Source: a virus (lineage: Duplodnaviria > Caudoviricetes). From it: a stretch of DNA of 64,000 nt. The stretch lies in IMG/VR virus record IMGVR_UViG_3300045015_000053; one strand, 5' to 3'. The position numbers were made by a program, and so were the translations under genes. Below, one piece after another: positions 2,221-63,441 of this stretch (its first letter is position 1; each line of letters starts with the position of its first letter). The notes under the pieces are model-generated. The model did not search any database, was not told the DNA's origin, and saw only the letters and a list, made by a program, of their open reading frames with translations.

Positions 2221-2226
2221 TAGATA
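2221..2226 (+). promoter_or_regulatory. putative late promoter TAGATA, 5 nt before ATG
   Basis: gTAGATAcggtcATG; recurrent motif and spacing. Confidence 0.6.
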
Positions 2227-2231
2227 CGGTC

Positions 2232-2924
2232 ATGAAAAAGAAGAAACCCGTTCTACCGCCGTCATACGACATCTTCGACGCCCTGAATCAAGTCCACCGC
2301 GACAGCATCTGTACGGAAACCAGAGAGATCTGGCTGCACAGTACGCACGCGGGCGACGACGAACCGGGCGTCGAATATCGTATGGCGACGATGTTCCTCA
2401 AGAACCTCAACCTTCTTGAGAAGGACGGGAGCCGCCGGCCCATACTCGTTCACATGCACGTTACGGGCGGCGAGTGGAACGACGGGATGGCGATCTACGA
2501 CGCCATCAAGCTCTCCCCCTGTCCGATCACCATCATCGCCTACGCTCAAGCGTCCTCGATGTCGGGAATCATCCTCCAAGCCGCCAAAACCCGGCTGATG
2601 ATGCCCAACTGCGAGTTCATGGCTCACACCGGCAGTCTCGACACCAACAACGAAACCCTTGTCGCTTTCAAGCTCGCGCAGCGGAACATGGAGTGTCACA
2701 AGCTGATGCTCTCGATCTTCGCCGAGCGGTGCATGAAGGTCGAAAAGTACAAGGGTCTGGCTCTCGAAGAGGTCATGGCGAAGATCGACTGGTGGATGAA
2801 GAACGACGGCGAGATCAACATCCTCGCGGCCGAGGCCGTCGAGAACGGGTTCGCCGACGCCGTGATCGGAAGCAAAGAATACCCCACGGTTTATGACGCC
2901 TGGGGACGAATCATGTCCGGCTGA
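2232..2924 (+). CDS. clpP: ClpP-like serine protease
   Basis: GGEWNDGMAIYDAIK, AQASSMS (catalytic Ser), RLMMPNCEFMAH (His), AAEAVENGFADAVI. Confidence 0.85.
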   Translation: MKKKKPVLPPSYDIFDALNQVHRDSICTETREIWLHSTHAGDDEPGVEYRMATMFLKNLNLLEKDGSRRPILVHMHVTGGEWNDGMAIYDAIKLSPCPITIIAYAQASSMSGIILQAAKTRLMMPNCEFMAHTGSLDTNNETLVAFKLAQRNMECHKLMLSIFAERCMKVEKYKGLALEEVMAKIDWWMKNDGEINILAAEAVENGFADAVIGSKEYPTVYDAWGRIMSG

Positions 2925-2926
2925 TC

Positions 2927-2955
2927 TTGACAGTGGCTCTCGCCTTTCTTAAAGT
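2927..2955 (+). promoter_or_regulatory. sigma70-type promoter for the dnaE N-half unit
   Basis: TTGACA-17 nt-TAAAGT. Confidence 0.7.
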
Positions 2956-2979
2956 TGCTCTACCTCAGAGGGCAGGGCC

Positions 2980-3102
2980 ATGCTTGGTTTTGAACACCTT
3001 CACAGCGGTTTCGATTTTTCGATTCTGGATCAGTTCGTCACATGGGAACCCGACCATGAACCAATGGTTGAAGGCGATTTGGATGCGGAGTGCGTTTCCT
3101 AG
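2980..3102 (+). CDS. 40-aa ORF resembling the first strand of the DnaE PHP domain
   Basis: MLGFEHLHSGFDFSILDQF vs DnaE GLEHLHLHTDFSLLDGF; purine-rich RBS upstream. Confidence 0.45.
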   Translation: MLGFEHLHSGFDFSILDQFVTWEPDHEPMVEGDLDAECVS

Positions 3103-3292
3103 CGGGACACAGGTACGCATCACCGGCAACCACACCCTGGTAAAAGGGTCTTTGGTTTTGAACTGCACTGGTCTGACTGGCATAGTTGACCGCTATTGCC
3201 ATTGGTCCGACTGTTTCGTTGTGCTTCTGGACGATCCGCCGCACCACGAACTCTGGCTCGGCGAACTGGAGATCCAAAAGGTATTACCATGA
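3056..3292 (+). CDS. hypothetical protein
   Basis: ATG 3056; ATGA overlap with the dnaE start. Confidence 0.55.
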   Translation: MNQWLKAIWMRSAFPSGTQVRITGNHTLVKGSLVLNCTGLTGIVDRYCHWSDCFVVLLDDPPHHELWLGELEIQKVLP

Positions 3293-61417: not shown

Positions 61418-61544
61418 CTCCGATTTTGAAGGCTCTGGTTCCCCTTGTGGGTGGTAAAAAGATCGCGCATAATCATCACGTTGCTGCGATTGGGCTGTAG
61501 AAATCGAAACCCCCAATGTCTGCGTAGCAGACAGGGAGTAAGTG

Positions 61545-62720
61545 ATGAGTGAGAAGCTACACGTCAACGTCGGCACCATCGGTCACATCGACCACGGGAA
61601 GACCACGTTGACGGCCGCGATCCTCGCGGTACAGGAGAAAAAGGGACTGGCAAAGGCGAAGGCGTACAGCGCCATCGCGAAGGGCGGAACGGTTCGGGAC
61701 GCGACGAAGGTCGTGACGATCACGTCGAGCCACGTCGAGTACGAGAGTGACAAGCGTCACTACGCACACGTTGACTGCCCCGGTCACGCCGACTACGTCA
61801 AGAACATGATCACGGGCGCGGCCCAGATGGACGGGTCCATCCTGCTGCTTTCGGCCACTGACGGGCCGATGCAACAGACCCGCGAACACGTCCTGCTCGC
61901 AAGGCAGGTGGGCGTGCCGCAGATCGTGGTGTTCATCAACAAGTGCGACGTGGTTCAGGACCAAGAGATCCTCGAACTGATCGAGTTGGAAACAAGAGAG
62001 ATGCTCACCAAGTACGGGTTCGACGGTGACAAGACGCCGATCATCCGTGGCGCGGCGAAGCCGGCTCTCGACAACCCGACCGACCCGGAGAAGACCAAGT
62101 GCATCAGCGACTTGCTCGCCGCACTCGACAGCTACATCCCCGACCCCGTCCGCGCCGTCGAGCGGCCTTTCCTGATGTTCGTGGAAGGCGTCCACCAGAT
62201 CGTGGGACGTGGCACGGTAGCTACCGGCAAGATCGAACAAGGTGTCGTCAAGGTCGGCGACAAGGTCGAAATCCTCGGCCTCGGCGACATGAAGGAAAGC
62301 GTCGTCACCAGCATCGAAGCCTTCAACCGTCAACTGGAAGACGGGACCGCCGGACAGAACGTCGGCATCCTGCTTCGCGGTGTGAAGGCCGAAGACCTAC
62401 AACGTGGTCACGTCTTGGCCGCTCCCCGGAGCATCAAGCCGCAGACCAAGTTCAAGGCTCAGGTGTACGTTCTGGGCAAGGAAGAGGGTGGGCGGCACAC
62501 GCCGTTCATGAGCGGGTACAGCCCGCAGTTCTTCTTCCGCACCACGAACGTGACCGGGACGCTGACGCTGCCGGAAAACATCGACATGGTCATGCCGGGC
62601 GACAACGTGGCTCTCACCGTCGAACTGGAAAAAGCCGTGGCACTCGAAGCGGGTAGCCACTTCGCCGTCCGAGAAGGCGGCAAAACCATCGGTTCTGGAC
62701 AAGTGACCGAGGTGCTGTGA
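61545..62720 (+). CDS. tuf: elongation factor Tu
   Basis: [65 protein letters not shown]. Confidence 0.97.
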
Positions 62721-62783
62721 AGATCTAGTAGTTAAACAGGGGGAGAACTGGCCCCCACCCCGTCGCGAGACGGGGCTACTGAT

Positions 62784-62854
62784 GGCCCTATAGTCTAGTG
62801 GCAGGACGTAACCCTCTCAAGGTTAAGATTGGAGTTCGATTCTCCATAGGGTCA
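62784..62854 (+). tRNA. tRNA-Glu(CTC)
   Basis: TAACC-CTCTCAA-GGTTA; TTCGATT T loop. Confidence 0.9.
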
Positions 62855-62903
62855 CAGGCTCGACTACGTCCGACGCTCAGTTTTTCGGACGTTATAATTT
62901 GTC

Positions 62904-63329
62904 ATGGAGAAGACATGTTACAAGTGTAAACAATTGAAGCTTGCGGACGAGTTCTCGAAAGATACTCGGAGTAAAGATGGGTTGTGTGCGGCTTGTAGAG
63001 CTTGCCGAAGCGAGCTTAAAAAGCAGTATTACAACCGCGAACATGATGGCTTGAGGATCAAGCAGCTTGAGAAGCGTCGGAAGCTTCAGGATTGGGTTAG
63101 CACATTCAAGAAAGAGTGTAGTGTTTGCGGAGAGGATCATCCGGCTTGTTTGGATTTTCATCATGATGGCGAGAAGGAAGCAGGTATTGCCAACATGATC
63201 AATCGCAACAATATGACCGACGAAATGAGATCGAAGGTTTTGGCTGAGATCGCCAAATGCAAAGTCTTGTGTTCAAACTGTCACAGGAAGTTGCACTGGA
63301 AAGAAAGAAGAGAAGGCCCATTCGTCTAG
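62904..63329 (+). mobile_element. HNH endonuclease (paralog of 60245), stop codon inside the next tRNA
   Basis: CYKC...KDGLCAACRAC; CSVCGEDHPACLDFHH...KCKVLCSNCHRKLH; TATAAT plus 5 nt before ATG. Confidence 0.88.
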
Positions 63330-63385
63330 TGGTAGGACATCAGATTTTCACTCTGACAACCGGAGTTCAATTCTCCGATGGGTCA
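63315..63385 (+). tRNA. tRNA-Glu(TTC)
   Basis: TCAGA-TTTTCAC-TCTGA; TTCAATT T loop. Confidence 0.9.
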
Positions 63386-63441
63386 CTCAAAAGAAAGAAA
63401 CGAATCGGTATATACCCCACAGGCCGAACACAAGGGGTTTC

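Follow-up and report, generated by a model that had tools for sequence, protein, structure and literature searches.

The TAnATA Box and the Genes It Adjoins

The DNA considered here is a stretch of 64,000 nucleotides (nt), hereafter the window, which forms bases 9123-73122 of a single 188,369-bp IMG/VR virus record, IMGVR_UViG_3300045015_000053 (Caudoviricetes). Its recurring feature is the box TAnATA, in which n stands for any base, and which repeatedly lies only a few nucleotides before the ATG of an open reading frame (ORF). The GC content of the record is about 56% and its completeness according to CheckV is 37%, so it is a fragment of the genome, roughly 0.5 Mb in size, of a giant lake phage. 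A first-pass annotation of the window had taken the box for a phage late promoter that gives rise to leaderless mRNAs, and all the coordinates that it listed for the box proved correct. Positions below are those of the window unless a genome position is stated, and G001 denotes the related record IMGVR_UViG_3300013121_000017, which is described in a later section.

Exactly five nucleotides separate box and ATG at 2232, 13462, 20569, 34898(-), 34915, 36870 and 53843. TAGATA-N5-ATG at 2221-2234 (+) starts a 230-amino-acid (aa) ClpP/S49-like protease of the head-maturation type, TACATA-N5-ATG at 13451-13464 (+) starts a 179-aa ORF of no known function, its box lying within the 3' end of the upstream gene, and TATATA-N5-ATG at 20558-20571 (+), whose box sits in a near-perfect palindrome, starts an HNH/endonuclease VII (endoVII)-like gene. 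At 34896-34917 a single palindromic TATATA adjoins ATG 34898(-) on one strand and ATG 34915(+) on the other, and both ORFs show coding-type GC content at third codon positions (GC3). TAAATA-N5-ATG at 36859-36872 (+) opens a 691-aa ORF of no known family, and a search for related loci with this protein found nothing. The 293-aa ORF behind TAGATA-N5-ATG at 53832-53845 (+) is overlapped on the minus strand by an ORF at 53807-54865, which was rejected as a shadow of the gene at 53843-54724.

Other gaps are found as well, and these too agree with the first-pass values. The gap is four nucleotides at 21852 (TATATA-N4-ATG, 21842-21854 (+), a 74-aa ORF whose G001 counterpart has TACATA-N6-ATG) and at 47975 (TAGATA-N4-ATG, 47965-47977 (+), 264 aa), six at 23007 (TAGATA-N6-ATG, 22995-23009 (+), 264 aa), seven at 31003(-) (TAAATA-N7-ATG, 31001-31016 (-), 121 aa), and nine at 6459 (TATATA-N9-ATG, 6444-6461 (+)), where the plus-strand face of a palindromic box precedes a near-leaderless 78-aa ORF and the nine-nucleotide gap is kept in G001. 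The six-nucleotide site heads a plus-strand string of genes that includes a thiamine diphosphate (ThDP) enzyme, IF3 and an aldehyde dehydrogenase. Furthermore, three sites that the first pass had missed were found at 20924(-), 21448(+) and 55100(-). The last of these, a TAGATA at 55095-55100(-), lies just past the end of the gene 55098-55898(-), and no minus-strand gene explains it; transcription from this site would be antisense to the gene 53843-54724(+), which itself has a box.

Five more distant copies, 27-57 nt upstream of their ATGs, are accompanied by a Shine-Dalgarno (SD) sequence at the usual SD distance, as the first pass had also observed. The reverse face of the 6444 TATATA (6410-6449 (-)) precedes ATG 6412(-) by a 31-nt leader with GGAG, and TAAATA at 5962-6027 (-) precedes ATG 5964(-) by a 57-nt leader with GGAGG. 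On the plus strand, TAAATA at 14007-14045 is followed by a 30-nt leader with AAGGA and ATG 14043, TAAATA at 16455-16512 by a 5' hairpin, AGGAGG and ATG 16510, and TATATA at 63409-63444 by a 27-nt leader with AAGGGG and ATG 63442. The 16455 copy heads a plus-strand string of genes that contains bS21. Its hairpin (16461-16489, -25 kcal/mol) begins at the predicted transcription start of the leadered TAAATA; the box, as TACATA, and the first bases of the hairpin are kept in G001.

Two copies without a start had been set aside in the first pass as background. This description suits TACATA at 11534-11539 (+), which lies inside the DnaE gene, whereas TATATA at 40564-40569 is intergenic and, with no adjoining start, lies 146 nt before a sigma factor gene.

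Placement and Base Requirements of the Box

The enrichment of the box was examined against shuffled sequence, as the first-pass annotation had proposed. TAnATA-N5-ATG occurs 7 times in the window, where 0.13 occurrences are expected, and none of 100 dinucleotide shuffles of the window reached 7. The 188,369-bp record contains 80 TAnATA sites in all (both strands, with palindromic TATATA counted twice). At 27 of these the ATG of an ORF of 50 or more codons follows after 3-7 nt, and in 15 of the 27 cases the gap is exactly 5 nt. This fraction of 0.34 is the highest among 1024 control words of the form XXNXXX, for which the median is 0.024 (binomial p ~8e-24). Only 10 of the 80 sites are clearly intragenic, against a gene coverage of about 82%, and about a tenth of the genes have a box 4-6 nt before the start codon. 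The bias is thus one of placement outside genes, and a genome-wide depletion of the word was rejected because the count of 80 equals the median of words of the same composition. Several TAnATA words (TAAATA, TATATA) also occur in an extremely A/T-rich island at genome positions 98,899-98,952, which has no adjacent ORF and contrasts with the GC content elsewhere in the genome.

Single substitutions of the box were scanned in this record together with G001, each word being scored by how often it stands 4-6 nt before the ATG of a long ORF. The consensus does so at 57 of 215 sites (26.5%) and each single-base variant at no more than 4.8%, showing that all five fixed bases are required. The free middle base is G in 21, A in 18, T in 14 and C in 12 cases, and the base in front of the box is mostly C or G, with C at 36 of 65 sites. 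A T at the last position is the hallmark of the -10 hexamer of the sigma-70 type. TAnATT, however, does not occur before an ATG at any of 162 sites, which rules out an ordinary hexamer of this type; the housekeeping pattern (TATAAT/TANNNT) has T at -7 in addition to A at the second position, whereas the last base here is always A.

These base requirements bear on an alternative explanation in which TAnATA is likewise a leaderless promoter but is read by a host sigma factor, or by one of two phage sigma factors with regions 2 and 4, so that its timing need not be late. A second element of such a promoter could be a weak patch 15-20 nt upstream of the box, rich first in A and then in T, which resembles AAAWTT at 0.2-0.3 bits per column and falls at about -31 to -26 of the predicted start; examples lie at 36840-36845 and at L058:8380-8390. 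However, the excluded last T stands against this alternative, as does the absence of any -35-like column from the aligned regions upstream of the boxes. The first-pass annotation had further assigned other units, such as those for replication and tRNAs, to a TTGACA-17-TAnnnT class. This class is not statistically apparent, as 11 matches compare with 8 for the reversed pattern, and 7 with 6.6 in shuffles; a sigma-70-type TTGAC-N17-19-TANNNT class was similarly rejected for lack of enrichment.

Two Kinds of Start

No SD core of at least 4 nt precedes any of 24 motif starts, in agreement with the first-pass observation of missing SDs at close boxes, whereas 151 of 263 predicted genes carry such a core (GGAG/GAGG type). 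Starts that follow a box and the SD-led majority are therefore two distinct kinds. The start codon after a box is almost always ATG (ATG 49, GTG 2, TTG 0), and it is this combination of a near-obligatory AUG with a missing SD that characterizes leaderless starts. In addition, the base before the ATG is C at 27 of 35 N5 sites and at 51 of 115 SD-led starts (p ~9e-4), in agreement with the preference of transcription starts for a pyrimidine at -1 and a purine at +1. In 16 of the 24 motif cases no possible start codon of the ORF precedes the ATG; for the other 8 the box could improve the calling of gene starts. ORFs linked to the motif in the window have coding-type GC3 (0.64-0.87), with the exception of the HNH gene, which is compositionally foreign.

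The surroundings of certain boxes narrow down where a transcript could begin. A gap of 6 nt separates the box at 47965 from the T-tract of the terminator hairpin before it, and boxes at 129909 and 143522 (window numbering, beyond the window end) also directly follow terminator hairpins. Because the box abuts the terminator, a new transcript must start within about 10 nt of those ATGs. At 34898(-)/34915(+) the divergent genes that share the palindromic TATATA both lack an SD, and the A residues of their ATGs span 18 bp, a geometry that we take to be the one described for symmetric bidirectional -10 elements. The same divergent palindromic design occurs in the structural module of G001.

Palindromes also bring to mind a site for some process other than transcription, such as a homing-endonuclease or methylase site, a site for replication or packaging, or a repressor operator, which would be intergenic merely by tendency. 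Of the genes that follow a box, two encode HNH endonucleases, and a 16-mer is common to the palindromes around the boxes at 20558 and 34904. Such a site leaves unexplained the co-orientation with genes, the phasing at 4-6 nt before the ATG, the missing SD, the restriction to ATG and the C at -1, and we regard this explanation as hardly credible. The 16-mer itself, TATATACGATCATGGA, comprises box, spacer and the first five coding bases and is identical at 20558-20573 and 34894-34909. It opens the HNH/endoVII-like gene at 20569(+) and an unrelated 145-aa gene at 34898(-), with both boxes in near-palindromes, and may be a copied promoter cassette or an operator.

Conservation in Related Huge Phages

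G001 (261,680 bp, 55% GC, 52% complete) was retrieved by a search with the protease. For about 43 kb G001 and the present record are collinear, with nucleotide identities of 66-81% overall and 68-81% in most blocks; elsewhere the two cover different parts of the genome. In G001, 38 of 135 TAnATA sites lie 3-7 nt before the ATG of a long ORF, 20 of them at N5, and five nucleotides is the most frequent spacer in both records. Among seven clear pairs of orthologues the box at the ATG is kept in six, while the middle base, spacer and flanks have changed. The gene at 23007 has TAGATA-N6 here and TATATA-N5 in G001, with proteins 73% identical from residue 1, and the gene at 31003(-) has TAAATA here and TAGATA in G001 with the same 7-nt spacer (77% identical). 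For the gene at 13462 G001 has an identical TACATA-cgggc-ATG, and the protein is 65% identical. A G001 site with N8 at 242177 is probably not leaderless, as its orthologue here (16510) has the hairpin leader and an SD.

The seventh pair, the protease at 2232, is of particular use in judging a further alternative, namely that the motif acts in RNA, with UAnAUA serving as an endoribonuclease or processing site or as an A/U-rich element that recruits ribosomes. Its strict distance from the AUG could suit a translational signal, and several boxes lie inside the 3' end of a co-oriented upstream gene (e.g., 13451), so that read-through transcripts containing the motif must exist. However, the G001 protease orthologue (70% identical) is SD-led and has TACATA 66 nt upstream; the box is kept while the leader changes, and a promoter would be expected to behave in this way, but a translation signal would not. 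Copies 27-70 nt upstream have ordinary SDs and therefore cannot act on the AUG, one palindromic DNA box serves both strands, and boxes sit right after terminators. As sequence and position also match a known class of promoter, a role at the RNA level is quite improbable.

The distribution of the motif was followed further by counting TAnATA-N5-ATG in each record against the reversed pattern. The counts are 20/2 in G001, 50/15 in LR756511.1, 28/2 in G004, 37/2 in G005, 21/8 in G006, 33/8 in G007 and 30/10 in G008, that is, a 2.6- to 18-fold excess in seven related huge-phage records, whereas T4, with 16/13, shows no excess. G005 (IMGVR_UViG_3300049215_000771, 532,729 bp) is rated 100% complete. 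LR756511.1, a 595-kb unannotated record of an uncultured phage, is the closest record in the phage collection; a megablast search of 50,697 phage records with one motif-headed gene gave no match.

A Candidate Sigma Factor and the Probable Timing of the Regulon

The first-pass annotation had proposed a search for a sigma factor resembling T4 gp55 elsewhere in the genome. Such a gene is present in G001, LR756511.1 and G004-G008, although it is absent from the 188-kb record, and all seven relatives with a motif excess were found through this protein or contain it. The G001 protein has 177 aa and only a Sigma70_r2 domain (PF04542). Its residues 3-146 match phrog_234, "late sigma transcription factor" (E 5e-7), it aligns with residues 72-131 of T4 gp55 (BLASTP E 4e-4), and its AlphaFold model (pLDDT 86) has a fold like that of sigma domain 2. 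Homologues of similar size (about 180 aa) number more than 1200, and the contigs that carry them reach 673 kb.

In G001 this gene lies inside the tail module, between the tail tube genes and the baseplate-hub gene and near the sheath gene. It is SD-led, and overlapping TATATA/TAGATA boxes (TATATAGATA; G001 ~107,493-107,502, minus strand; L062:1990-2010) stand some 55-60 nt ahead of its ATG, a hint that the gene may be positively autoregulated. Pfam models for the catalytic part of the RNA polymerase (RNAP) beta-prime subunit and for T7-type RNAP found nothing above threshold in G000, G001, G004 and the complete G005, the second of these searches having been run without a positive control. As no phage RNAP was found, host core RNAP together with a phage sigma factor is the economical reading.

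The present record has two sigma factor genes of its own, both with regions 2 and 4, one at 40710-41216 (+) that encodes a 168-aa protein which, by domain search, is not gp55-like, and one of 333 aa at genome positions 161404-162405. These genes, and the missing gp55-like gene, lend some weight to the alternative of another reader introduced above. Nevertheless, all seven relatives tested encode the gp55-like mini sigma and share the motif excess, and the box equals the late consensus of T4 and Aeh1 in sequence and predicted position. On balance, another reader seems unlikely.

The genes behind the box in G001 provide most of what can be said about timing. There the box directly precedes the head-tail adaptor (phrog_211) and its 898-aa, 411-aa and 206-aa neighbors, and it also stands before a sheath stabilizer like T4 gp15 (PF16724), which is followed by an SD-led tail sheath gene. 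An endolysin-like gene carries the box as well, as do non-structural genes for a CCA-adding enzyme, a NUDIX-thymidylate kinase, and LAGLIDADG and HNH endonucleases. Since the box would drive neck and tail genes in G001, the regulon is probably late, a timing that is carried over mainly from this relative. Motif-headed genes of the window comprise the ClpP/S49-type protease, the endoVII/HNH gene and ten ORFs without a known family; the protease and the endoVII-like gene are suggestive of the late class, and they are the only genes of the window that point to it.

A Proposed Promoter Fused to the Start Codon

Judged from its sequence context, TAnATA is very probably a promoter element. In the mechanism that we propose, TAnATA would be the whole recognition element, equivalent to positions -11 to -6 of late promoters of the T4 type, and host core RNAP carrying a small, region-2-only phage sigma factor of the gp55 kind would melt the DNA at the box. 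The first transcribed base would lie about 6 nt beyond the final A of the box. Where the box lies 4-6 nt before the ATG, the 5' end of the transcript would coincide with the A of AUG or lie 1-3 nt or less away, and such an AUG-starting transcript would be translated as a leaderless mRNA without an SD. Where the box lies 27-70 nt upstream, the transcript would have a leader with a normal SD. Taken as a whole, namely a promoter with its start at or next to the AUG, a gp55-like sigma factor as its reader and membership in a late class, we give this reading a probability of about 0.7.

Several points weigh against it. No gp55-like gene was found in the 188-kb, 37%-complete record by tblastn, and phrog_234 matches only the 333-aa sigma factor with regions 2 and 4, so that for this phage the gene is assumed from a relative which shares only about 43 kb with the record. 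The homology of the mini sigma to gp55 is itself remote: a comparison by hhalign with the single T4 sequence gave E 0.065, T4 gp55 was not among the PDB sequences retrieved with the mini sigma by itself or with a 23-sequence profile, and the top 50 PDB chains in Foldseek are only sigma factors in RNAP initiation complexes, a generic result with E values of 6e-3 or weaker. Sites with N4, N6, N7 and N9 require flexibility in the start site or give leaders of 1-4 nt. Furthermore, most motif-headed genes of the window have no known function, and some motif-headed genes are untypical of a late class (HNH endonucleases, ParB-like and SprT-like genes, and, in G001, those for the CCA-adding enzyme and NUDIX-thymidylate kinase). 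Finally, the gene calls are home-made. The first-pass proposal of a late, leaderless promoter is supported by geometry, strictness, missing SDs, conservation and the sigma factor of the relatives, and is weaker as to the reader in this fragment and as to late timing.

If the reading is correct, the box would provide a searchable 6-bp late-gene code for huge uncultured phages, timing classes would become predictable from sequence alone, and a function would be assigned to more than 1200 small sigma-like proteins. It would also mean that fusion of T4-type late promoters to start codons is possible and can give a phage a large leaderless regulon amid genes with strong SDs.

Relation to Known Systems

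Late transcription in T4 uses the gp55 sigma factor together with gp33 and the gp45 clamp. The T4 late promoter, TATAAATA, spans -13 to -6, and the variant of Aeromonas phage Aeh1, CTAAATA, extends from -12 (PMC1524935). With the T4 element at this position, an N5 spacer would place +1 on the A of the ATG. The box of the present phage exhibits considerable similarities to these promoters. It is a short, strict, A/T-rich, -10-only element that matches the 3' six bases of TATAAATA, and TAAATA, one of the four allowed forms, is, as in Aeh1, often preceded by C, occupying -12/-11 to -6. In addition, the relatives encode a region-2-only sigma factor of the gp55 family (phrog_234), albeit of remote homology, and the box stands ahead of genes for the neck and tail within a T4-like myovirus module that includes gp15-like, sheath, tube and baseplate-hub genes. 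There are also significant differences: the central base is free here, the first two bases of the T4 octamer are dispensable, and the upstream A/T patch is absent from the description of the T4 late promoter. Dozens of boxes lie 4-6 nt from an ATG here, whereas TATAAATA-N5-ATG occurs once in T4, and the replicase here is of the DnaE type.

In bacteria of the Deinococcus-Thermus group and in actinobacteria, TANNNT lies about 6-7 nt before the start codon, and Deinococcus-type bacteria place this -10 box beside ORFs for leaderless expression (PMC12340547), a precedent that favors a host-type reader. The likeness extends to a -10 element that abuts the ORF and to the coexistence of -10-type and GGAG-type starts. 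However, TANNNT is a housekeeping element that ends in T, whereas here the last A is required and T is excluded, implying a different sigma specificity.

Thermus phage phiYS40 offers another comparison. Most of its middle and late mRNAs are reported to be leaderless, and host IF2 rises and IF3 falls during infection (as summarized in PMC3594737). Both are large phages in which later gene classes are, or would be, largely leaderless and for which a link to initiation factors has been proposed. The host of phiYS40, however, belongs to a phylum rich in leaderless mRNAs, whereas most genes here have strong SDs and one promoter class would be leaderless; and host IF3 is lowered there, whereas here IF3 is phage-encoded and a complete relative lacks both IF3 and bS21. 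Full-text literature searches that paired leaderless expression with gp55, with late promoters or with huge phages returned no description of the combination seen here.

Translation Factors and tRNAs

The first-pass annotation had further suggested that leaderless translation might be tuned by the IF3, bS21 and initiator tRNAs of the phage itself. IF3 (25388-26083 (+); IF3_N and IF3_C) and bS21 (19139-19423 (+), SD-led) are real genes by domain match. Each belongs to a plus-strand string of genes, and the closest TAnATA upstream is that at 22995 for IF3 and that at 16455 for bS21. A published study links the expression of phage bS21 with late replication (PMC9723584), a link that the position of the two genes downstream of boxes would fit. 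Among six relatives, however, IF3 occurs in two and bS21 in three (G001 and G008 have both, and G004 has two bS21 genes), and the complete G005, with its 37 N5 sites against 2 in the control, has neither. The leaderless design is therefore independent of these genes, which weakens the suggested tuning although both genes exist here; in lineages that carry them they may nevertheless have a modulating role.

As to initiator tRNAs, the window contains 20 tRNA genes, and none of three tRNA(CAT) genes shows the three canonical G-C pairs in the anticodon stem of bacterial initiators. Two tandem 72-nt tRNA(CAT) genes at 57989-58137, which may be initiator, elongator Met or Ile2 tRNAs, begin with U1-A72 or U1-G72, and their anticodon stems contain no more than two G-C pairs.

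A more far-reaching proposal, which we consider doubtful, is that a clade of freshwater phages of about 0.5 Mb combines the gp55-like mini sigma with a 6-bp promoter fused to the start codon, that dozens of late mRNAs are thereby leaderless in hosts for which strong SDs are otherwise the rule, and that IF3 and bS21, where present, re-tune the ribosome between SD-led and leaderless initiation, thus coupling the takeover of transcription with that of translation. If the main reading is correct, the question of why huge phages carry genes for translation initiation would become testable, with G005 showing that these genes are not required for the design.

Other Features of the Record

Genome bases ~5317-10890 (up to 1768 in the window) hold a string of genes encoding proteins of 709 aa and 408 aa and SpoVR, the last identified by Pfam (E 1.5e-103). 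The string resembles the PrkA-YeaH-SpoVR stress-kinase operon, SpoVR being the only member tested. The nearest cellular SpoVR is 61% identical and lies on a 40-kb contig of a metagenome-assembled genome (MAG) named "Chloracidobacterium sp."; a host assignment from this match was rejected, as the 40-kb contig could itself be viral.

The gene for the DnaE-type polymerase is in two parts. An ORF at 3196-4710 encodes the PHP domain together with the beginning of the Pol III alpha domain, and the remaining part (finger, helix-hairpin-helix) is encoded at 10136-12991, 5.4 kb downstream of the first. Between the two parts lie genes on the opposite strand and the divergent TATATA box.

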